Part shown: one piece after another, positions 10,549 through 21,505 of the stretch
How the letters are laid out: each line of letters opens with the position of its first letter
Position numbering within the stretch: the stretch's first letter is position 1
Assembly: GCA_001567355.1 (NCBI GenBank)
Contig: JYNZ01000006.1
Span: 18,109 to 82,108, forward strand
Direction of reading: 5' to 3'
Length of the DNA stretch: 64,000 bases
Origin: a candidate division WS6 bacterium OLB20
Lineage (GTDB): Bacteria; Patescibacteriota; Dojkabacteria; B142; OLB20
Made by a program: the position numbers and the translations under genes
Notes under the pieces: generated by a model
What the model was told of the DNA's origin: nothing
Seen by the model: only the letters and a program-made list of their open reading frames with translations
Database searches by the model: none

Positions 10549-11562
10549 ATGCAGGGTTTACCGCTGATCATAATCTGTCTGCTTGGAATGCTCTCTCTGG
10601 GAGCATTGATCGTTCTTCGCTTCTGGTATCAGCGTGTACCGGTGCCAGAGCAGATCCGGGATCCTAAGCTGCTGCACATCCTGATCAGAGATACGGGAGA
10701 ATATTCGCTCGAACATACGCGTGAACTCTTTGACAGGCTTCACGATCTCATAAAGTGGCACAACAGTATCGTCAGTCTTGAGCTGATAGCGGGTGCCTAC
10801 GGGATGCATGTGATTGCAGTAACAGAGGAAAGGATTGCTGTCGAACTGCATGACCTGTTTGCTCAGTTTTATCCCGATGCGGCAATCGACAATGTCGGGG
10901 ACTACACGAGCAGTGTGCATACGACCCATAAACTCATGAGTACGGCAGAATTCGGACTGAAGCGTGAATTTGCCTATCCGGTCAGGCGTTTTGATGAATT
11001 CAGTCACGATCCCCTGGGAGCAGTTTTTGCCGTGCTGCAGAATGTAACGCTTCCTAATGAGTTCTGGCTGCAGCTTGTCCTGCGTCCTGCGCCAGATACC
11101 TGGAAACCGGCAGCCCGCAAGATGATCGGGAATACCGAGCTGGCGCATGAGCGCATGAACAGAGTGGAGCAGAAACTGCAGCAGAAAGGATTTCAGTTTA
11201 TCGTCCGCGGGCTGGTGAAATCCGACAACTTTAATGTGGCAGGCAGTTATTTTCAGGACCTGGCGGACGCATTTGGGATGTTTGATTCCCCTGACCTCAA
11301 CAGCATCGCGCAGAAGAAGCAGGGCAGGCCTGACATATCTGACCTGCTGCGTCACCTGCTGGTCGGCAGGACACTGTATGAACGGACTGACGAGGTTACC
11401 CGCTATGAACACCGCGTGCTGGATCACCTGAGTGAGGATGTGATCACACCTTCAGAGCTTGCAGGGCTCTGGCATGTGCCCGATATTGATAATCCTGTAG
11501 AACTTACACCTGGAGGGACCGAGCTTATGATCGCGCCGGGCCATGACCTGCAGGAATTATAG
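10549..11562 (+). CDS. Hypothetical N-terminally membrane-anchored protein
   Basis: 337 aa, TM 'LPLIIICLLGMLSLGALIVL'. Ends abruptly against convergent parA. Confidence 0.4.
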   Translation: MQGLPLIIICLLGMLSLGALIVLRFWYQRVPVPEQIRDPKLLHILIRDTGEYSLEHTRELFDRLHDLIKWHNSIVSLELIAGAYGMHVIAVTEERIAVELHDLFAQFYPDAAIDNVGDYTSSVHTTHKLMSTAEFGLKREFAYPVRRFDEFSHDPLGAVFAVLQNVTLPNEFWLQLVLRPAPDTWKPAARKMIGNTELAHERMNRVEQKLQQKGFQFIVRGLVKSDNFNVAGSYFQDLADAFGMFDSPDLNSIAQKKQGRPDISDLLRHLLVGRTLYERTDEVTRYEHRVLDHLSEDVITPSELAGLWHVPDIDNPVELTPGGTELMIAPGHDLQEL

Positions 11563-11587
11563 CCAGCTGTAGCAGTGACTGAAAAAA

Positions 11588-12366
11588 TCAGTCGTATCTG
11601 GAGAGAACTTCATCAGCAAGATCGCTGTATGCCTGGGCGCCTTGCGAGTTTGGGTCATACGCTTTGATGGATTTGCCGTGAGAAGGCGCTTCTGACAGAC
11701 GTACGTTGCGCGGAATAATGGTGTTGAACACTTTGTCCCCGAAGAACTTTCGCACTTCTTCGGTGACCTGTTTTGACAGGTTTGTGCGTGAGTCAAACAT
11801 CGTCAGTATCACACCTCCGATCTCAAGCCTTGAGTTGAGCCGGTTTTTAACCAGTTTGATTGTATTCATAAGCTGCCCGAGTCCCTCAAGAGCAAAGTAC
11901 TCTGCCTGCACAGGAATAAAGACCTGGTCACTTGCTGTCAGAGCATTGATGGTCAGAATACCGAGCGAGGAGGACAGTCAATCAGCACAAAATCAAAGCT
12001 TTCGCGAACGGCATCGAGCGCATTGCTTAGTATTGATTCGCGGGACATGGCAGATACAAGTTCGACCTCTGCTCCGGCAAGTTCTATCCCGGCTGGTGCA
12101 AGAAACAGATTTGGTGACGATGTAGCCAGAAATATCTCGTTGACAGTCATTGAACCGGTCAGAACGTCGTAGAGTGTATTGTCGATCTTCTTCTCCTGAC
12201 CCTCTTCTATAGTCATACCAAAACCGATGCCGGAGGTAAGATTTGACTGCGGGTCAAGATCGACAAGCAGCACCTTTTTACCTTTTTCAGCCAGAAACAC
12301 GCCAAGGTTGATCGCTGTTGTCGTTTTGCCCACGCCTCCTTTTTGGTTTGCTACTGCTATGATCAT
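11588..12366 (-). pseudogene. parA: ParA/Soj partition ATPase interrupted by 1-nt frameshift (ORFs 11953..12366 and 11588..11911)
   Basis: N-terminal part 'IAVANQKGGVGKTTTAINLG' (deviant Walker A) ends '...[10 protein letters not shown]'. An alternative frame continues '[32 protein letters not shown]...' into the second ORF. One base appears to be missing near 11966-11970. Confidence 0.8.
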
Positions 12367-13022
12367 TCTCTGGATGATAGTTCCTCGTATTCGCCCTGTC
12401 TTATGATACCAAATTTAGCTACGGGCCAGTATCTGAAGAATACACGGCCCTTAAGCATACTGCGGGGAACAAAACCTACTTCTGCAAATCTTGAATCTTT
12501 TGAGTTTTCGCGGTTATCTCCCATCAGAAAGTAATGACCTTCGGGTACTACAAGTTCTTCGCCTTCTTCCATAAAGGCCTGTCCCTGAAAGGGAACGCGT
12601 GTCCTTGTTGTCTTGGGGATGTATTTCTCGTCAAGTTCGCTGCCGTTTACAAATACGCCGTTATCTTCGATCCTGATTGTATCTCCGCCAACCGCAATGA
12701 TTCTTTTTATCAGGTCTGTCCCTTTGTTGTTGAAAATCACAACATCACCTCTGCGGTAGTTGTAGTCGACTCCCAGAGTGTTGGCCACCTGGCTGCCGCC
12801 AAACCACTCGATCACTTTGTTGGTAAGCAACAGCTCCTGATCCTGAAAGTTCGGTTCCATTGACTGACCGTCAACCTGATTCGGAATTGCAATCAGCATA
12901 TAAATGAACACGCTGATCAGCAGGGCAATGATGACTGTCTGGACTATGTCAACAAAGAATGCCCGGATCTTGTCTTCGGGCTTGTAGAATGATGGATTTA
13001 CGGTTGGTTGTGGTCCCAGCAT
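12363..13022 (-). CDS. lepB: Signal peptidase I
   Basis: Catalytic 'GQSMEPN' (Ser), 'IKRIIAVGGD' (Lys), 'GDNRENSKDSR' box; N-terminal TM. Confidence 0.9.
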   Translation of the reverse strand: MLGPQPTVNPSFYKPEDKIRAFFVDIVQTVIIALLISVFIYMLIAIPNQVDGQSMEPNFQDQELLLTNKVIEWFGGSQVANTLGVDYNYRRGDVVIFNNKGTDLIKRIIAVGGDTIRIEDNGVFVNGSELDEKYIPKTTRTRVPFQGQAFMEEGEELVVPEGHYFLMGDNRENSKDSRFAEVGFVPRSMLKGRVFFRYWPVAKFGIIRQGEYEELSSRE

Positions 13023-13058
13023 GATGCTTGCTAAGTATACCCGCTAATCAGGTGCCGA

Positions 13059-13718
13059 TCAATCAGGCGACACATTTGTCTTGCCGCGTCCTATAAGTCC
13101 AAAGCGGTCAGGTGGCCAGTAGCGGATAAACACACGACCAGACAGCTGTTCGCGTTTCAAAAAGCCGATATCAGCAAATCTCGAGTCCTTGCTGTTGGGA
13201 CGGTTATCGCCTAACACAAAATATGTGCCCTCTGGTACAACCGTATCCACCCCTTCAGGGAATGTTGCCTGCGAGAAGGGCATGGCGGTAGGCTTTTGCG
13301 AGGGATCAATATATTCCTCGTCGAGCAGGATGCCGTTCAGGTAGACACGACCCCCCTCGATCCTGACAGTATCGCCGCCGATTGCAACAATACGTTTGAT
13401 CAGTGATATCTCTCCAAAAGGAAACACAACCACATCGCCACGACCGTAGTCATAACCCTGGGCCTGACCGAAACCGGTTGTTCCGACCATGTTGATGATT
13501 TTGTCGGTAAACAGCTGCTCCTTGTCCAGAAAGTTGGGTTCCATTGACTGCCCGTCTACCTGGTTTGGCAACAGTATCACAAGATAAAGCAGTACAAAAA
13601 CCACCAGAACTACAGCGATTACCTGAAGGACACTGATTATTCTGCTGCCAGCTCCTGATTTTGCGGATTCCGTATAAAAGTATTCATTTGTTTTAACTTC
13701 TGTAGCCATGTTCTTCAT
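13059..13718 (-). CDS. lepB: Signal peptidase I (second, tandem paralog)
   Basis: 'GQSMEPN', 'IKRIVAIGGD', 'GDNRPNSKDSR'; same architecture as the neighbour, about 45% identical by eye. Confidence 0.9.
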   Translation of the reverse strand: MKNMATEVKTNEYFYTESAKSGAGSRIISVLQVIAVVLVVFVLLYLVILLPNQVDGQSMEPNFLDKEQLFTDKIINMVGTTGFGQAQGYDYGRGDVVVFPFGEISLIKRIVAIGGDTVRIEGGRVYLNGILLDEEYIDPSQKPTAMPFSQATFPEGVDTVVPEGTYFVLGDNRPNSKDSRFADIGFLKREQLSGRVFIRYWPPDRFGLIGRGKTNVSPD

Positions 13719-14015: not shown

Positions 14016-17000
14016 TTACCTGCGAAGGTTTACGGAAACATGTGCGCCGTTTACTTCAATAGTTTTCCAGCCATCAGTGGAGTCCTTGCTGACGCTGACA
14101 ACAGCACCTGTACCAGCTTCGATATCTGCTTTCAGCAGGTCGAGGACAATCAGCATATCCCTGTCTTCAGTTGCAACGTCCATCTGCAGTGTCTCGCCCA
14201 TGTCAAAGCCTGATTTTTTACGCAGGTTCTGGACCAGACGCACAAATTCACGCATGGTGCCCTCACGCTTCAATTCTTCTGTGAGGTTGAAATCCATGGC
14301 TATCTGAATATTGCTCTGCTCATGTGCTGCTGTCTCCCAGCCCGGTGCGGCTGTGATCTCTTTTTCTTCGTCAACCGTTTTTACATTCAGCTCATCCTGA
14401 ACAAGTTCTTTCATCCAGGCTTCAAACTCATAGTCGCGTGACGGTTCGCTGTCAGACTTAACTTCCAGCTCGCTCAGCGGCTGACGGACCTTGACACCAT
14501 GCTTGACGCGTAAGGCCTGTCCGAGTGCGACTACATCCCGCACATGCTGCATCTGCATCATCAGTTTGTCTGATTGTTCCAGCAGTTCTACGTCAACCTC
14601 GGGATAATCAGTCAGGTGGACTGATTCGCTTGCATCAAGCACCTTGCCGGTGACCAGATTGCCGTACATGGCTTCGGCCAGAAATGGTGTAAACGGAGCG
14701 ATCAGTTTTGTAAATTCTGTCAGAACAAAGTAGAGCGTGTCCAGCGCCTGCTGATCGCCGTCTGCAAACCGGTCGCGCGATCTGCGGATATACCATTTTG
14801 AGAGATCAGAGAGAAACTCCGGCAGTTCACGCACCGCAGCCGGAAGATTGTACTCATCCATGCGGATGCGCACGTCACGGACTGCAAGCTGCAGCCGGGC
14901 GATTATCCACTGGTCCAGCTTGCTCTCGATAGTTTTAAACGGAACGGTGTCGGTTATCTCTTCATCAGAGTTCTCATCATCCACTGCCAGGTTGTCTGCC
15001 GGCACCCAGTTGTGCATGTTGGCATAGGTGACAAAGAACGAATAACTGTTCCAGAGCGGCAGGATAAAGCTTTTCATCTGTTCGACGAGTCCCTGCTCGT
15101 TGATCAGCATATCGTCGCCAACCATGATGGGAGAACCCATCAGGTAAAGTCGCAGGGATTCAGCCCCGTACTGCTCAAGAACGCCTCTCGGGTCGGGGTA
15201 ATTGCCATAGCTCTTGCTCATTTTGCGGCCATCGGTGCCAAAAATGATGCCGGTGGTAACCACGTTTTTGAATGAGGGTTTCTGCATCAGGGCCGTTGAG
15301 AGTACATGCATGACATAAAACCATGCACGCGTCTGACCGATATACTCAACAATGTAGTCAGCAGGGTAGGACGCTTCAAACTGTTCTTTATTCTCAAACG
15401 GATAATGCTTTTGAGCGTAGGGCATTGATGCGCTGTCCATCCATACATCAAGTACCTCGGCTACACGCTTCAGCTCGCCCTTTTCACCCTTGAGTGTGAT
15501 GTCATCGATCATGGGACGGTGCAGGTCTAGCATCCTGTCACCGACAAAGAACATTGTGACGGTGCCAGTGTACGGCACATCCATGGCAAGTGTCTCTTTA
15601 AGGTTTCTGCCCTCGACAATATGCCGGATTATTGCGATCCGTTCTCCATGGGTAGCAACAAGGATATATTTGCCCTCGTGTGCTTTTAGAAATTCGGACA
15701 GGCCATCCTCGGTCTGTTTGATTATCTGTTTGTAGGCGGCGCGGAGATCTTCTTCAGCAATGTCACTGATCCATTTTGCCTCAGGATGTTTTTCAAGCAG
15801 ATCCGCTTCGATGCGTTCGTACTCCTCGCGCATCGGAATAGTACCGAACACATCCTCAGTGAGCACTTCCTTCCCTTGCATCTGTGCCAGCTCCTCAACT
15901 GTCTGCTGTGCTCTCCGGGTGTCAGAGGCTACGATCAGATCAAACGCCTCATCTTTCATTGTTGTGTTGAATGATTCGACCTGCGCCCAGCCTTCATCAT
16001 TCAGTTTGCCGTCTGCAGCTGATTTGTCACGGGATGCATGCCGGACAAAAACCACCTTGGTGATCTTTTGTGTGGAATGTTCGCGCAGCTCATCACGCGA
16101 ACCGATAACCTTGCGTTCGACCACCGTGCCTTTTTCTTCAAGCTGCCAGACTGGCAGCGGTGTCCCCCAGAAACGTGTGCGGGAAATTCCCCAGTCGGGA
16201 GCGGTCTCGATACCTTTTGCAAACCGTCCGTACTTGAGGTGATCAGGTACCCAGTTGATCTGTTCGTTGAACCTGAGAAGATCGTCGCGGATGTCCTTGA
16301 TGCTGATAAACCATGAATGCTGTGCCTTGTGGATCAGCGGGACACCTGACCTCGGACTGAAAGGATAGCGGTGTGTGATCCGTTCTGACTTAAACAGCAG
16401 TGAACGTTCTTTCAGGTCGGCAAGAATCAGATCGTCAGCCTCTTTAATATAAATACCCTGCCAGCGCGGGACAGCCTCGGTGTATTTGCCTTCATCGCTG
16501 ATGACATCAGCAGCGATGTCGAGATTGTTTGCCAGTCCCATCTCTGTGTCAATGTCTCCAAAACCGGGAGCGGAGTGCACAATACCGACTCCTTCCTTCA
16601 TATGTACCATGCCCTCATACGCGTATACTTTATGGTCGTTTGGACCTGAAGCAATAAAATCAAATGGCGGTTCATAGCTGAGGCCGAGCAGTTTAGTGCC
16701 TTTGAATGTCTCAACCGCTTCGGCATCCATACCTGCAAGTACAGTTTCGGCACGTTTTTCTGCAAGGATGACTTCATCGACACGTGCTGCCTCTGTATAG
16801 TCGTGCGTTTTCTGAACATGTTTTTCGTTAATCGCATTGACCTGTTCGATGGTCATGTCGGCAATCTGCGGCGGATGAACACCCGGCGAGTCAGTAACTT
16901 CCTTGCCAAACCAGGCGGGAGCTGCAAACTCGTTGGCCATACGCGGGCTGGGGAATTCAACCTCTGCAACGATCAGTCCCTGCAGGTTGTTCTGGTAGAC

Positions 17001-18134
17001 ATCAATCTCGGCAGTCAGGTCGTTTTCGAGCGGGAGATAATAGCGTGTCTTTACAACTTTTTTCGTTGATTTTTTTATCAGCTCGACATATTCATCTTTG
17101 GTCAGTTCATCAGTCTTTTCGATCAGACTGCCTGTGGCCGATTTGTCTCCGGCGTAATACTTGCGGGTAAATGTATAACTGTCGTCAAGCTTGCGGATGC
17201 GAACGTCTTTAAGCTCAAGTCCTGACTCGTCACGGTAGTCCTCAAGATAGGCCTGGGTGATTTGCGACTTTTTAAGTTTTTTTGCATCCTCAGGCAGCTG
17301 TGATAGCAGCCAGGCGCGTTCGATTTCACTGTCGGAACGTGTCACACGATAGAGCGTATAGTCTTCCTGTGGATCTATTACCAGAGCCTTGTTTGCCGGC
17401 AGAGTCCAGGGGGTTGTTGTCCACGCAAGGATGCTTTTACCGTTAAACCGTCCCTCGGAGATGACCGGGAATCTGACGGTGATAGCCGGATCCTCAACAT
17501 CCATGTAGGAGTTATCCATGGCTATCTCGAAGTTGGAGATCGGCGTGCCGAGCACTGTGTCGTAAAGTGAAGTTCTGATGCCTTCGTAGATCAGGTTTTT
17601 GTCGTACAGCTGCTTGAAATTCCACATGACCGACTCCATATAGTCCTGATCCATCGTCTTGTAGCTGTTGTTGAAGTCGACCCAGCGACCGATCTTGTCA
17701 ATGTACCACTGCCATTCTGCTGACGTGTTTCGGGTGTACGTGTAGCACTGCTCGATAAACTTATCGATTCCAAATTCTTCAACCTCACGGCGGTTTTTTA
17801 TTCCAAGTTCTTTCTCGACTTTGGTTTCGATTGGCATGCCATGACAATCCCAGCCCCAGACACGTTCAACTCGCTTGCCGCGCATTGTCTGATACCGCGG
17901 AACGACATCCTTGGCAATGCTTCCGAGCAGATGTCCGTAATGTGGGAGACCGGTGATAAACGGAGGACCGTCATAAAAGACATAACTGTTTGCGGGGTCA
18001 CGCTGCTGAACCGATTTTTCAAAGATGTTGTGTTCCTTCCAGAATGCGGTAATGGAGTCTTCAAGTTCAGGAAAATTCTGTTTCGGATTTACTGGTTCAA
18101 ACATTTCGGTACAGCGATGTAAAAAACTGAACAA
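14016..18134 (-). CDS. ileS: Isoleucine--tRNA ligase with two large inserted domains (CYTH-like; histidine-phosphatase-like)
   Basis: HIGH 'PHYGHLL', editing-domain 'WTTTPWTLPAN', 'GRKMSKSYGNYPDP' KMSKS. 1372 aa, about 350 aa longer than typical IleS. Confidence 0.92.
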   Translation of the reverse strand: MFSFLHRCTEMFEPVNPKQNFPELEDSITAFWKEHNIFEKSVQQRDPANSYVFYDGPPFITGLPHYGHLLGSIAKDVVPRYQTMRGKRVERVWGWDCHGMPIETKVEKELGIKNRREVEEFGIDKFIEQCYTYTRNTSAEWQWYIDKIGRWVDFNNSYKTMDQDYMESVMWNFKQLYDKNLIYEGIRTSLYDTVLGTPISNFEIAMDNSYMDVEDPAITVRFPVISEGRFNGKSILAWTTTPWTLPANKALVIDPQEDYTLYRVTRSDSEIERAWLLSQLPEDAKKLKKSQITQAYLEDYRDESGLELKDVRIRKLDDSYTFTRKYYAGDKSATGSLIEKTDELTKDEYVELIKKSTKKVVKTRYYLPLENDLTAEIDVYQNNLQGLIVAEVEFPSPRMANEFAAPAWFGKEVTDSPGVHPPQIADMTIEQVNAINEKHVQKTHDYTEAARVDEVILAEKRAETVLAGMDAEAVETFKGTKLLGLSYEPPFDFIASGPNDHKVYAYEGMVHMKEGVGIVHSAPGFGDIDTEMGLANNLDIAADVISDEGKYTEAVPRWQGIYIKEADDLILADLKERSLLFKSERITHRYPFSPRSGVPLIHKAQHSWFISIKDIRDDLLRFNEQINWVPDHLKYGRFAKGIETAPDWGISRTRFWGTPLPVWQLEEKGTVVERKVIGSRDELREHSTQKITKVVFVRHASRDKSAADGKLNDEGWAQVESFNTTMKDEAFDLIVASDTRRAQQTVEELAQMQGKEVLTEDVFGTIPMREEYERIEADLLEKHPEAKWISDIAEEDLRAAYKQIIKQTEDGLSEFLKAHEGKYILVATHGERIAIIRHIVEGRNLKETLAMDVPYTGTVTMFFVGDRMLDLHRPMIDDITLKGEKGELKRVAEVLDVWMDSASMPYAQKHYPFENKEQFEASYPADYIVEYIGQTRAWFYVMHVLSTALMQKPSFKNVVTTGIIFGTDGRKMSKSYGNYPDPRGVLEQYGAESLRLYLMGSPIMVGDDMLINEQGLVEQMKSFILPLWNSYSFFVTYANMHNWVPADNLAVDDENSDEEITDTVPFKTIESKLDQWIIARLQLAVRDVRIRMDEYNLPAAVRELPEFLSDLSKWYIRRSRDRFADGDQQALDTLYFVLTEFTKLIAPFTPFLAEAMYGNLVTGKVLDASESVHLTDYPEVDVELLEQSDKLMMQMQHVRDVVALGQALRVKHGVKVRQPLSELEVKSDSEPSRDYEFEAWMKELVQDELNVKTVDEEKEITAAPGWETAAHEQSNIQIAMDFNLTEELKREGTMREFVRLVQNLRKKSGFDMGETLQMDVATEDRDMLIVLDLLKADIEAGTGAVVSVSKDSTDGWKTIEVNGAHVSVNLRR

Positions 18135-18549: not shown

Positions 18550-18828
18550 ATGGCAGATGACAAAAATCAGGACTTTGACGAGACATACGACGAAGACGCT
18601 GACCCCTCACAGGAGGAGGACGGTTTTTACGCTGACGATGTTCAGGCAGCTGCGATTGCAGATAACAATATGGACCCTGACGAGCTTGAAGAGGATGACG
18701 ATCTCGAGGTGACCAGTGGCGAGATGGAGATCGGGGATCTTGATGATGACAGCATGGTAGCAGAGGGTGACGATGATGAAAGTTACGATGAAGAGAGCGT
18801 ACCGGCAGGAGATAACGTACTGGGATAA
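18550..18828 (+). CDS. Highly acidic small protein (about 45% Asp/Glu)
   Basis: 92 aa 'MADDKNQDFDETYDEDADPSQEEDGFYADD...'; strong compositional bias, no motif. Confidence 0.4.
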   Translation: MADDKNQDFDETYDEDADPSQEEDGFYADDVQAAAIADNNMDPDELEEDDDLEVTSGEMEIGDLDDDSMVAEGDDDESYDEESVPAGDNVLG

Positions 18829-19526: not shown

Positions 19527-20355
19527 TCTGCGTCTGCTTGTCTATACTGCAGCATCTGTGGCCATTGTTGCTGGTGTGATCCTGTTTGCAGCTGCATATG
19601 CGGGTGCGGTCGAGCTCCCCCGGGCAATTGAACTGGGACCGGTCAGTATCCGTCTGTATGCGATTATTATAATGACAGGAGTGGGCGTGTCCGCCTGGCT
19701 GCTCAGCCGGCATGCGCAGTATCATCCCGAACTTACCGGTTTCAGAGTTGACGATGCTCTGCTCTGGGCTGTGGTGCCGGCGATAATCGGAGCACGTCTG
19801 TGGCACTTTGTGGCTGAATATCCTCTCTATGCTGAAGATCCCATTACCGTTCTGTACATCTGGCAGGGAGGTGTGACCATCCTTGGTGCAATCGCCGGCG
19901 GTGCGCTGGGAGCTGTCATCTATGCACGCAGACAGGGACTGCCTGCACTCAAACTGCTGGAACTGGCATTTGTTTTTGTTCCACTGGCACAGATTATCGG
20001 CCGGTTCGGAAACTTTGTGAACCAGGAGCTGTACGGACCCCAGACAGATCTGCCGTGGGGGGTGTATATTAGCGATACGGGTATGCGGCACCATCCAGCT
20101 TTTCTGTATGAACAGATCGGCAACGCAATCCTGTTCTATATTCTGTACAGAATTTACCGGCGTTACGGTCTGGAGGGCAACGGCCGCCTTGTTGCATCCT
20201 ACCTGCTTGGGTATGCGGCAGTCAGATTTACAGTTGATCTGGTCCGCCTTGACCGGAAAATAGCATTCGGCCTGACCAGTCCGCAGCTGACAGCAGTTAT
20301 AATAGCAGTTGCTGCAGGGCTTTATCTGATACGTTTACGCGTACATCATGACTGA
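19510..20355 (+). CDS. lgt: Phosphatidylglycerol--prolipoprotein diacylglyceryl transferase
   Basis: Lgt signature 'GRFGNFVNQELYGPQTDLPWGV', multiple TM helices. ORF opens at 19456, but the ATG at 19510 is the likely start (overlaps the oxidoreductase end). Confidence 0.85.
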   Translation: MNSSTSLRLLVYTAASVAIVAGVILFAAAYAGAVELPRAIELGPVSIRLYAIIIMTGVGVSAWLLSRHAQYHPELTGFRVDDALLWAVVPAIIGARLWHFVAEYPLYAEDPITVLYIWQGGVTILGAIAGGALGAVIYARRQGLPALKLLELAFVFVPLAQIIGRFGNFVNQELYGPQTDLPWGVYISDTGMRHHPAFLYEQIGNAILFYILYRIYRRYGLEGNGRLVASYLLGYAAVRFTVDLVRLDRKIAFGLTSPQLTAVIIAVAAGLYLIRLRVHHD

Positions 20356-21505
20356 ACCAGTAAGCATCCTTTTTTTCGGTTCCGGCACGTTTGCGGTACC
20401 TGTGTTGCGTGCTCTGCTGCGGTCAGATAGTGTCACTGTTGCAGCGGTCGTGACCCAGCCGGACAAACCGGCAGGCCGTAAAAAACAGCTGCAACCGGTG
20501 CCCGTCAAGCAGATGCTTCTGAAAGAATTCCCCGACATATCCATCGTCCAGCCGGAGCGGTTTCGCGATGAATCGGACGGTATCCTTGCCAGGTTTGAGC
20601 CCGACCTGATCATCGTCGCCGACTACGGGCAGATTTTGCGTCAGGAAACCCTGGACGCGCCGCGGTACGGCAGCCTGAACGTGCATGCCTCGCTTCTGCC
20701 GCGCTGGAGAGGGGCAGTCCCCATACAGATGGCAATACTGCACGGTGACCGCATCAGCGGAGTCACTATTATGCGAATGACTGCAGGACTTGATGAAGGA
20801 CCGATAATCGCCCAGCGCGAGGTCGCGATAAATGATGATGACACAGCTGAGACTCTCGAAGCCAGACTCGCTGAGCAGGGCAGTCATCTTCTGCTCGAAG
20901 TGATACAGCCGTGGATAGATGGCGCTTTGCTGCCACGGGAGCAGGATGACAGTAATGCAACGGTTTGCAGCAAGGCGGACCTTGCCAAGGATAACGCAAT
21001 GATAACAATCGATGACAAACCTGATGAGATACAAAGAATGGTCAGAGCCTACTATCCATGGCCGGTGGCCTGGATGGAGGTGATTGTCCGTGGACAGCGA
21101 AAACGGCTGAAAATTTTTTCTGTCTCAGAAACAGCAAATGCAAGTGCCGGCGATCCTGGGGCTTTTATAAAGGAGGGCAGATCGCTGCTGCTTAATTTTA
21201 CATCCGGTACACTCAGGCTGGATGACATTCAGCTTGAGGGTCTGCGACGCATGCCCGGAAGCGATTATCTCTTTCTGGCGGATAGCCCGATACTTATGTT
21301 CCTGACTGATGTACGAGTACGATTTTTTTTAAATTTCTGGCAAAGTGGCGCGCCTCAGGCAGGTATCCTGAGGGGTACGCATGGCCGCAGACACTGGAGT
21401 TCGGACGCACATTCTGGGAGACGATCAAAACATTGCACAGATATACCGAAAAAGACGGGCATGAGTATGAGGCCAGCCTGTTTTATGAAGGTAATCAGAT
21501 CCTGA
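20348..21505 (+). CDS. fmt: Methionyl-tRNA formyltransferase (C-terminal ~60 aa likely read-through past a T8 homopolymer)
   Basis: 'ILFFGSGTFAVPVL', 'SLNVHASLLPRWRGAVPIQMAIL', 'RMTAGLDEGPI'. Fmt homology ends near 21330; the tail is Arg/His/Ser-rich low complexity. One T fewer at 21323-21330 would give a stop. Confidence 0.85.
   Translation: MTEPVSILFFGSGTFAVPVLRALLRSDSVTVAAVVTQPDKPAGRKKQLQPVPVKQMLLKEFPDISIVQPERFRDESDGILARFEPDLIIVADYGQILRQETLDAPRYGSLNVHASLLPRWRGAVPIQMAILHGDRISGVTIMRMTAGLDEGPIIAQREVAINDDDTAETLEARLAEQGSHLLLEVIQPWIDGALLPREQDDSNATVCSKADLAKDNAMITIDDKPDEIQRMVRAYYPWPVAWMEVIVRGQRKRLKIFSVSETANASAGDPGAFIKEGRSLLLNFTSGTLRLDDIQLEGLRRMPGSDYLFLADSPILMFLTDVRVRFFLNFWQSGAPQAGILRGTHGRRHWSSDAHSGRRSKHCTDIPKKTGMSMRPACFMKVIRS

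Follow-up and report, generated by a model that had tools for sequence, protein, structure and literature searches.

Two phosphohydrolase-fold domains nested in the isoleucyl-tRNA synthetase of a Dojkabacteria genome, and a system of exchangeable modules in its relatives

The window analyzed in this work is a stretch of 64,000 nucleotides (nt) from "candidate division WS6 bacterium OLB20", a member of the Dojkabacteria (WS6) within the Patescibacteria/CPR (candidate phyla radiation), and carries on its minus strand the gene ileS for an isoleucyl-tRNA synthetase (IleRS) that harbors two additional, nested enzyme domains. Read from a TTG codon at position 18134, an uninterrupted open reading frame (ORF) of 1372 amino acids (aa) extends to position 14016, so that the oversized IleS of the original prediction is real; the insert-free IleRS of related Patescibacteria measure 930 to 1015 aa. 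The ORF itself therefore stands, but its TTG start probably does not: because a TATAAT box overlaps this TTG, an ATG is placed next at 18104 (aa 11 of the ORF), and the OLB20 IleS at NCBI (P0001), which is 100% identical to the window's enzyme, is 1362 aa long, the true start probably is the ATG at 18104, giving 1362 aa. Residue numbers in this text follow the 1372-aa ORF and are offset by +10 from the 1362-aa protein. The gene has an ortholog (1350 aa, 65% identical) in a closed 1.17-Mb Dojkabacteria chromosome (CP129475.1), where the gene order is as in the window: parA, two signal peptidase I genes, ileS, an FNR-like reductase gene, lgt, and fmt. Since this order is conserved in a closed chromosome, the locus is the orthologous housekeeping ileS. 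Conserved positions were taken from an alignment of 120 IleRS sequences (A1), and insert boundaries from 90 aligned homologs with insert-free Patescibacteria IleRS (ca. 950 aa) as the reference. The features of the gene are the following:

14016..18104, minus strand: ileS, encoding a type-2 (eukaryote-like) isoleucyl-tRNA synthetase of 1362 aa (TIGR00392, identity to P0001, structure matches to IleRS2 and eukaryotic enzymes)
17931..17942, minus strand: HIGH signature (HYGH, aa 65-68); in A1, P54 and H55 invariant and G57 near-invariant
17391..17423, minus strand: Thr-rich peptide of the CP1 editing domain, WTTTPWTLPAN, aa 238-248; in A1, W228 to T234 and N238 invariant
16881..17330, minus strand: barrel of a CYTH domain or triphosphate-tunnel metalloenzyme (TTM), aa 269-418, with its ExExA motif (EIERA) at 17313-17327 (NeuTTM match, AlphaFold2 model and Foldseek, invariant tunnel residues)
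16782..16880, minus strand: tail of insert A, aa 419-451, VHPPQIADMTIEQVNAINEKHVQKTHDYTEAAR, two short helices (shared with free-standing relatives; AlphaFold2 model)
16548..16586, minus strand: second block of the editing site, GIVHSAPGFGDID, aa 517-529; in A1, H510, G516, and D519 invariant
16146..16169, minus strand: WGTPLPVW block bordering site B, aa 656-663 (junction alignment)
15528..16079, minus strand: branch-1 histidine phosphatase domain, aa 686-869 (Pfam His_Phos_1, alignment to 4ij5, AlphaFold2 pLDDT 91-98)
16032-16046, 15900-15920, and 15642-15656, minus strand: core residues of insert B, respectively RH, the second Arg in TRRAQQT, and the second His in ATHGE
15432..15527, minus strand: host segment DLHRP...DVWMDS resuming after insert B, a former zinc knuckle with no cysteines left (junction alignment, Cys counts)
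15210..15224, minus strand: KMSKS signature, aa 971-975; in A1, K961 to K964 invariant

The host enzyme passes the ileS equivalog model TIGR00392 (767.7 bits against a cutoff of 621.4), and its Pfam domains are a split tRNA-synt_1, Anticodon_1, DUF5915, and His_Phos_1. It is a type-2 enzyme (IleRS2/eukaryote-like) and not an IleRS1: by sequence, the closest solved structures are eukaryotic and type-2 IleRS (9w01, 8wnd, 8c8v, 1ile; E-values of about 1e-183 to 1e-192), with the type-1 structures far behind (1e-55 to 1e-77), and a Foldseek search with the IleRS model agrees (1e-57 for IleRS2/eukaryotic against 1e-39 for IleRS1). With the type-2 enzymes of Priestia megaterium (IleRS2, 8c8v), Thermus thermophilus (1ile), and the yeast cytosol (8wnd), the best of which match it at about 1e-190 by sequence and 1e-57 by Foldseek, it shares the Rossmann core with HIGH and KMSKS, the CP1 editing domain with its Thr-rich peptide, Anticodon_1, and a C-terminus of the DUF5915 type; it differs from them by some 370 extra residues in two nested domains and by the loss of both CxxC...CxxC sites. 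With the models of the mupirocin-resistant IleRS MupA and MupB (NF000257, NF000258), whose cutoff is 1900 bits, it reaches 597 and 587 bits, and the enzyme thus belongs to neither. To judge from the sequence, the synthetase motifs (HIGH, KMSKS) and the CP1 editing motifs are intact, including the conserved His and Asp of the GxVHSAPGFGxxD editing block (H510 and D519, invariant in the 120 sequences), and there is no sign that synthesis or editing has been disabled.

Both inserts interrupt the host where the original prediction had put them. Insert A (aa 265-451, nt 16782-17342) is embedded in a β-hairpin of CP1, 17 aa after WTTTPWTLPAN; the editing motif remains intact despite this proximity, as A1 shows no variation in the columns of WTTTPWT and N238. 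GSRDELRE and DLHRP are separated by insert B (aa 686-869, nt 15528-16079), between the WGTPLPVW block and DVWMDS. The predicted locations hold for both, whereas the bounds then given (ca. 262-425 and ca. 690-880) had to be redrawn, that of insert A at its end, where a tail of 33 aa had been overlooked, and those of insert B at both ends. All peptides quoted at the time were found again (SEIERAWLL at aa 269-277, VVFVRHASRD at 694-703, SDTRRAQQT at ca. 737-745, and ATHGE at 827-831). The two fold assignments, a CYTH/TTM fold with the Lys of ExExK replaced by Ala for the first insert and a histidine phosphatase for the second, agree with the database and fold searches described below, in which the matches to both exceed chance by a wide margin. 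An AlphaFold2 (AF2) model of aa 11-1075 (pLDDT 90.3, pTM 0.82) renders the inserts as discrete, confident domains; its block values are 82-96 for the CYTH part and 91-98 for the phosphatase. A survey of orthologs, which had been proposed as a check, turned up inserts at the same sites in about 70 relatives, among them the closed genome. We regard the architecture, two enzyme domains nested in an IleRS, as virtually certain.

The identity of insert A rests on a phmmer search against the PDB, a library of representative proteins, and a fold search. In the PDB it matches the inorganic triphosphatase NeuTTM (2fbl/3typ) with an E-value of 2.5e-9 over the full barrel. Among 1.84 billion representative proteins 2776 relatives were found (505 at E<=1e-10), most of them free-standing CYTH proteins of 150 to 170 aa with 35 to 46% identity; IleRS is the only full-length aminoacyl-tRNA synthetase (aaRS) host among the best 150 of these representatives. 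Modeled alone, insert A reaches a pLDDT of 93.4 (96-97 in most blocks of the tail), and the top 24 PDB matches of this model in Foldseek are all TTM/CYTH proteins, with NeuTTM first (E=4e-11, TM 0.73) and RNA triphosphatases of the Cet1/Pct1 type reached only at E>0.02. The predicted structure thus has the eight-stranded tunnel that characterizes the TTM fold. Pfam CYTH (PF01928) gave no match to the insert at E<=1, nor did any NCBIfam model; a precomputed PF01928 annotation is carried by many of its relatives in the larger collection, including more distant free-standing ones.

Inside the tunnel, conservation is complete with one exception. In the approximately 45 CYTH-bearing IleRS, whose overall identity is only 50 to 64%, the residues E4, E6, Y28, R39, R41, K52, E63, K85, R87, E99, D101, E114, and E116 (NeuTTM numbering) are invariant, and the acidic residues (ExD, ExE) and the basic ones facing them (RxR, K, KxR) are so in the 57-sequence alignment A2 as well. 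The exception concerns the hallmark of the family, ExExK, which is incomplete: E270-x-E272 is kept, the Lys is Ala in the window (EIERA), and the position (K8) is A, G, S, C, or V in every IleRS copy. By this criterion insert A is a divergent member of the CYTH/TTM family. It has in common with NeuTTM (NE1496) and other bacterial CYTH/TTM proteins the eight-stranded tunnel, the acidic ligands (ExE in strand 1, ExD, ExE), the basic residues, and the equivalents of Y28 and K52; it departs from NeuTTM in being embedded in a hairpin, in its ExExAW motif (a small residue followed by W), in a helical tail of 33 aa, and in going unscored by Pfam CYTH. In a 36-sequence subset of the main clade, mean pairwise identity is 0.65 for the CYTH barrel, 0.42 for its tail, and 0.31 for the phosphatase, against 0.645 for the rest of CP1 and the core up to WGTP and 0.72 to 0.77 for the other catalytic segments of the host. 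The barrel is, in other words, as constrained as the IleRS core. Because of this constraint, and because every acidic and basic tunnel residue is invariant, the TTM module likely is a working metal-dependent phosphoanhydride hydrolase. The small residue in place of the ExExK Lys probably alters the tunnel entrance and with it which end of a substrate fits.

The ExExAW motif and the 33-aa tail (GxxPPxIAxMxIEEVxxIN...HDF) recur in a few rare free-standing proteins (P0122, P0123, and P0270 to P0273; loci L001 to L004; 179 to 254 aa, 45 to 49% identity to the module), of which P0270 to P0273 have no precomputed Pfam annotation. The tail is a signature of the CYTH subfamily to which insert A belongs, and this rare free-standing subfamily is the likely donor of the IleRS module. 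Since two of the next-closest free-standing relatives also are without the Lys (V in P0125, T in P0127), its absence is a trait of the subfamily and not decay after insertion. P0123 has an additional N-terminal extension of about 75 aa. At two loci with a free-standing, tail-bearing CYTH gene, a pair of adjacent CYTH (PF01928) and NUDIX genes lies about 1 kb downstream (L002 11520-12623 and L003 8965-10047); this pair was set aside as evidence, its CYTH being of another subfamily and its NUDIX only generically related to the IleRS modules (about 23 bits).

Insert B occupies the loop of a CxxC...CxxC zinc knuckle, which in ordinary relatives lies between WxTPxPxW and DVWxDS. Pfam His_Phos_1 (PF00300) matches it at E=3.9e-16 over aa 695-860; the score is 59.7 bits when the whole protein is searched and 64.1 bits with the insert by itself (cutoff 21.7). 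Among the phosphatase equivalogs searched (CobC TIGR03162, PspA, SixA, dPGM) none rose above its cutoff; the NCBIfam matches to CobC, PspA, and dPGM were all sub-cutoff, the best of them CobC with 48 against 162.9 bits. R697-H698-A, the Arg in TRRAQQT, and H829 in ATHGE are present in the window's insert, which is one of about 40 enzymes that keep R-H(A/G), the second Arg (SxxxRxxxT), and T-H-x-E. Two Glu are conserved, one in IAEEDL and the other two positions beyond the second His (TH-x-E), whereas an acidic residue at LTED is only moderately so. The domain thus resembles the branch-1 phosphatases (PspA-type 4ij5, the α-ribazole phosphatase CobC, dPGM) in its RH(A), as found in the active phosphoserine phosphatase 4ij5, in the Arg of SxxxRAxxT, and in its second His, and is unlike them in being nested in an aaRS loop, in reaching no equivalog cutoff, in its fast evolution, and in being dead in many sister lineages. 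With the nucleophile His, both Arg, and the second His kept in its sequence, the window's phosphatase may be an active phosphomonoesterase. No free-standing relatives of it were returned by our search.

In about 20 lineages the catalytic residues of the phosphatase are lost and the domain has shrunk to 111-165 aa, but nowhere has it been cleanly deleted; P0002, the closest relative of the window's enzyme (64% identity), belongs to these lineages. All 62 enzymes with an insert at this site have 0 or 1 knuckle cysteines, while most of those without the insert keep 3 or 4. From these cysteine counts and the never-deleted remnants we infer that the lasting role of the phosphatase across the clade is structural, as a replacement of the zinc knuckle that is retained even when catalytically dead. 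The simplest reading of its history is a ratchet: the inserted phosphatase would have taken over the structural role of the knuckle, the cysteines would then have been lost, and from there catalytic decay would remain possible and excision would not. A second, near-universal CxxC...CxxC site was lost as well (17541-17570 and 16335-16367, minus strand, now SLYDTVLGTP and YPFSPRSGVPL, with CCCC turned into DLSS). P0002 and P0012 share the DLSS state, and independent losses of the site are seen in two further subclades (DSSW; SS-Y). With both sites gone, the catalytic body of the window's IleRS is left without any cysteine zinc site.

Similar modules are found throughout the group: about 70 IleRS homologs of Dojkabacteria carry them at four recurrent sites, as follows:

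Site A (reference position 255, the CP1 hairpin): a CYTH module of 184 aa (about 45 sequences) or a NUDIX domain of about 160 aa
Site B (reference position 489): a phosphatase of 176 aa, or remnants of 111-165 aa that no longer match Pfam
Sites C (reference position 474) and D (reference position 220): Ser_hydrolase (PF06821) domains

The Ser_hydrolase, an α/β-hydrolase, is nested at position 474 in P0036, P0057, P0058, and P0060 and at position 220 in P0052 and P0068; at or near site D there also are short inserts without Pfam match (67 aa at position 220 in P0064 and P0065, 101 aa at position 218 in P0044). The combinations seen are CYTH only, histidine phosphatase (HP) only, NUDIX only, CYTH+HP, NUDIX+HP, NUDIX+Ser_hydrolase, and none, the last in two enzymes of Dojkabacteria type (P0059, P0063); P0052 and P0068 (1511 to 1538 aa) carry three modules together, Ser_hydrolase, NUDIX, and His-phosphatase. 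Fourteen of the NUDIX modules have a perfect Nudix box (GX5EX7REUXEEXGU), and the Pfam NUDIX score is 50 bits. Against the PDB, their profile aligns over the full length with the Ap4A (diadenosine tetraphosphate) hydrolase of Aquifex (2.3e-13), followed by CT771, Dcp2, RppH, and the lupin Ap4A hydrolase; in NCBIfam, the RNA pyrophosphohydrolases RppH/YtkD are the best families for 12 to 13 of 13 members. The sister-lineage module thus shares its Nudix box and a full-length alignment with the Nudix Ap4A hydrolases and RppH (Aquifex aq_158 3i7u, Chlamydia CT771, E. coli RppH), from which it differs in being embedded in CP1; the window's own protein has no NUDIX.

On a quick neighbor-joining (NJ) tree of 950 core columns, used for the qualitative mosaic pattern only and without event counts, the three states of site A (CYTH, NUDIX, empty) are interleaved among neighboring lineages. 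The distances of the CYTH module and of the host core are correlated (r=0.58, a value attained in 0 of 2000 Mantel permutations), and inheritance of the module therefore is mainly vertical. In P0053 and P0072, which group with insert-free Patescibacteria enzymes in this tree, the core is 44-50% distant from the main clade and the CYTH module only 28-33%, as if the module, or a segment of the gene, might have been transferred laterally. The nesting of modules is of old date, has been passed on mostly by vertical inheritance, and belongs to a modular system of the Dojkabacteria IleRS. Its principle is that of CP1 itself in the Ile-, Leu-, and Val-tRNA synthetases, where a hydrolase is nested in a loop of the host with its strands returning (PMC13114784); insert A differs as a second tier of insertion within CP1, and the folds are those of phosphohydrolases, not of aminoacyl-tRNA deacylases.

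As to function, the best overall explanation, to which we assign a probability of roughly 45%, is that the CYTH module is an active hydrolase of polyphosphate chains tethered to the editing domain, where it would possibly clear Ap4A, adenosine tetraphosphate (p4A), or inorganic triphosphate (PPPi). An aminoacyl adenylate (aa-AMP) attacked by PPPi gives adenosine tetraphosphate, and CthTTM, a bacterial TTM, reportedly hydrolyzes nucleoside tetraphosphates. The aaRSs are a main source of Ap4A, which arises when ATP attacks aa-AMP and is degraded by Nudix enzymes (PMC10148737). In TTMs, substrates of the triphosphate type are hydrolyzed with the help of two metals held by glutamates (PMC4641920, PMC8233210); ExExK contributes to coordinating the metal and to binding the substrate (PMC8233210), and which substrate 'tail' is accepted depends on the two ends of the tunnel (PMC8233210, PMC4641920). 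In the proposed scheme, attack of ATP or PPPi on the isoleucyl adenylate (Ile-AMP) would generate diadenosine polyphosphates (ApnA) or adenosine tetraphosphate as by-products at IleRS, and the module in the CP1 hairpin, a TTM or, in sister lineages, a Nudix domain, would hydrolyze these by-products or PPPi on site. That two unrelated polyphosphate-cutting folds alternate at one hairpin of an adenylate-forming enzyme suggests a shared job for site A, and a tentative extension is that its modules destroy polyphosphate side-products or precursors of Ile-AMP chemistry (Ap4A, diadenosine triphosphate (Ap3A), adenosine tetraphosphate, PPPi) where these are formed. It is equally speculative that the Dojkabacteria IleRS as a whole serves as a scaffold for interchangeable hydrolase modules, in which the TTM or Nudix of the CP1 hairpin would be functionally coupled to the host and degrade Ap4A, Ap3A, p4A, or PPPi.

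Several points weigh against this explanation. We know of no TTM that hydrolyzes Ap4A itself, it is family resemblance alone that suggests the substrate of the CYTH module, and the Lys that forms part of the family hallmark is missing. The module cannot be obligatory for IleRS function, nor can any other, because all combinations occur and some Dojkabacteria IleRS (P0059, P0063) have none. None of the free-standing CYTH relatives whose gene context was inspected is encoded near ileS. In the phosphatase, the canonical general-acid Glu aligns to a Thr, and the position is unconserved throughout the family. The closest characterized relative, NeuTTM, is a specific inorganic triphosphatase (PMC3440374), and IleRS is, according to Goerlich 1982 as cited in PMC10148737, a low producer of Ap4A, unlike LysRS, PheRS, and HisRS. 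With so low an output, it is hard to see why a clean-up module would be needed in IleRS and in no other synthetase.

A possible, if doubtful, alternative is that the modules are autonomous housekeeping hydrolases lodged in permissive surface loops of a large, essential, and constitutively expressed gene of a tiny genome; they would act on their own there, and being fused to IleRS would do no more than secure their expression and inheritance. The free combination of modules, the presence of four unrelated hydrolase folds at four sites, and the repeated decay of the phosphatase all suit this idea, as do the free-standing copies of the same CYTH subfamily in ordinary gene contexts outside ileS, the modest Ap4A synthesis ascribed to IleRS in that second-hand citation, and the general preference of domain insertions for aaRSs as hosts (PMC13114784). 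It accounts less well for the meeting of a TTM and an Ap4A-hydrolase-like Nudix domain at exactly one hairpin, which looks like functional replacement and not like random capture, and for IleRS being the sole full-length aaRS host among the best 150 CYTH-related representatives. The constraint on the CYTH barrel, equal to that on the IleRS core, shows that the module is important, although an autonomous enzyme would fit this too.

It is unlikely that the modules process RNA ends in cis, a scheme in which the TTM or an RppH-like Nudix domain would strip a 5'-tri- or diphosphate, or a cap-like nucleoside tetraphosphate (Np4), from bound tRNA(Ile) and the phosphatase a 2'- or 3'-phosphate at the acceptor end, charging thereby being restricted to tRNA that is mature or has been repaired. 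To our knowledge the 5' end of the tRNA does not approach CP1 in IleRS-tRNA complexes, and nothing indicates tRNAs with a 5'-triphosphate or a 3'-phosphate in these organisms. The scheme draws on the location of site A on CP1, by which the acceptor end is handled, and on the NUDIX modules, which in NCBIfam are nearest to RppH and YtkD and in the PDB rank Dcp2 and RppH high; yet their top PDB matches are Ap4A hydrolases and not RppH. Likewise, RNA triphosphatases do belong to the TTM superfamily (PMC8233210), but the TTMs nearest to insert A are inorganic or nucleotide triphosphatases, with the Cet1/Pct1 type at E>0.02 only. LysRS can cap RNA with Np4 in vitro, and RppH decaps it (PMC10148737).

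We consider it quite unlikely that the CYTH and phosphatase modules are pseudo-enzymes, which would either brace the structure or sense a ligand (such as polyphosphate, ApnA, or a (p)ppGpp-like nucleotide) and so adjust editing or aminoacylation by allostery. The missing ExExK Lys in every IleRS copy and the unconserved general acid of the phosphatase would be expected of such modules, and the dead phosphatase remnants kept in place of the knuckle do prove a structural role, though for that module only. In the CYTH module, all six acidic residues that bind the metal and five basic residues of the tunnel are invariant at 50 to 64% overall identity, as catalysis predicts and a mere scaffold does not; the Lys is lacking in the free-standing P0125 and P0127 too, which makes its absence a subfamily trait rather than decay; and the alternative NUDIX module retains a perfect catalytic Nudix box.

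Less probable still is an in-cis immunity in which swappable modules (the esterase-type Ser_hydrolase, Nudix, TTM, and phosphatase) inactivate inhibitors of IleRS at their target, for example the ester antibiotic mupirocin or mimics of the aminoacyl adenylate, and are gained, swapped, and lost in an arms race. The mosaic of repeated gain, loss, swap, and decay does resemble that of defense and resistance genes, and for this IleRS2-type host the nearest named NCBIfam models after ileS are MupA and MupB. NCBIfam moreover curates an IleRS with a GNAT acetyltransferase domain (NF040702, 'ileS_w_GNAT'), and GNATs such as MccE and RimL detoxify aminoacyl-nucleotides. NF040702 is a curated precedent for an IleRS with an added enzymatic domain; its fold is a different one, and the window's IleRS scores 246 bits against its cutoff of 1999 and has no acetyltransferase domain in Pfam. 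PADLOC defense-system models gave no match for the window's CYTH or phosphatase modules, which speaks against immunity, and the CYTH module is stable and mostly vertically inherited, unlike typical cargo of an arms race. We know of no IleRS-directed inhibitor with a triphosphate-like moiety.

An artefact, that is, a chimeric assembly or a mis-called ORF fusing unrelated genes, is refuted, even though the same metagenome-assembled genome (MAG) has at least one frameshifted gene nearby (parA) and its assembly thus is not error-free: the frame is unbroken over 4.1 kb, the architecture occurs in about 70 independent assemblies (NCBI, JGI, ENA, Logan) and in the closed chromosome with its conserved gene order, the sequence shows no compositional break, and the host sequence on either side of each insert aligns perfectly with insert-free IleRS. 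GC content is even across the gene, without discontinuity at the inserts. Absence from relatives together with flanking repeats had been named beforehand as the mark of a chimera; about 70 carriers are known and no flanking repeats were found around either insert, the single 18-nt repeat pair near insert A being host codons for '...ILA...' on both sides. An intein or mobile-element insertion was considered and rejected, as Pfam detects no Hint/intein or endonuclease domain and there are neither flanking repeats nor a GC break. Junctions of the intein type (Cys/Ser...His-Asn) are absent from the insert ends, and no paralogs of the inserted modules were found elsewhere in the 64-kb window.

The aaRSs are a textbook case of modular evolution, with known accretions of editing, RNA-binding, and protein-interaction domains. 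The present arrangement extends such accretion to catalytic hydrolases that are nested in the host and can be exchanged for one another at fixed loops. In the literature searched in full text, with subscription journals largely outside reach, we found no description of an aaRS with a nested CYTH, Nudix, histidine-phosphatase, or Ser_hydrolase domain. PF00300, PF00293, and PF06821 are already annotated automatically on these IleRS in the databases and the CYTH module is unannotated, so that the modules apparently are partly visible there and yet undiscussed. An essential synthetase has here repeatedly acquired phosphohydrolase and esterase folds with intact catalytic residues, in its editing domain as well as its catalytic body, and with different folds at the same loop. 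If the modules are coupled to the host, this would be the first aaRS with a built-in activity that polices its own alarmone and side-product chemistry, and a natural case of non-orthologous module replacement at a single loop. Coupling to IleRS chemistry would also offer an experimental handle on whether the ApnA and Np4 products of aaRSs are signals or damage, and would suggest a physiological role for bacterial triphosphate-tunnel enzymes. Whatever their function, the modules amount to a natural experiment in domain insertion, with precise permissive sites, a knuckle replaced by a decaying yet unlosable domain, and swaps of analogous modules; a CYTH subfamily (ExExAW with tail) that is invisible to Pfam is thereby flagged.

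Some observations concern the neighboring genes. The ParA-like gene downstream of ileS (11450-12366, minus strand) is frameshifted: frame 0 stops after '...LIDCPP' (137 aa) and the remainder lies in another frame, while the ortholog it matches in the closed genome (L005 9403-10182) is intact with 259 aa; either it is a pseudogene or the MAG contains an indel error. The fmt ORF (methionyl-tRNA formyltransferase; 20348-21505, plus strand) encodes 385 aa with Pfam domains stopping at aa 308, and the odd, Arg/His/Ser-rich composition of its last ca. 75 residues may reflect read-through or another assembly frameshift. Immediately upstream of the FNR-like gene lies an ORF for an extremely acidic (D/E-rich) protein of 92 aa without Pfam match (18550-18828, plus strand). 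Directly downstream of ileS, signal peptidase I (Peptidase_S26) is encoded by a tandem pair of paralogs, each 219 aa long (12363-13718, minus strand), an arrangement conserved in the closed genome.

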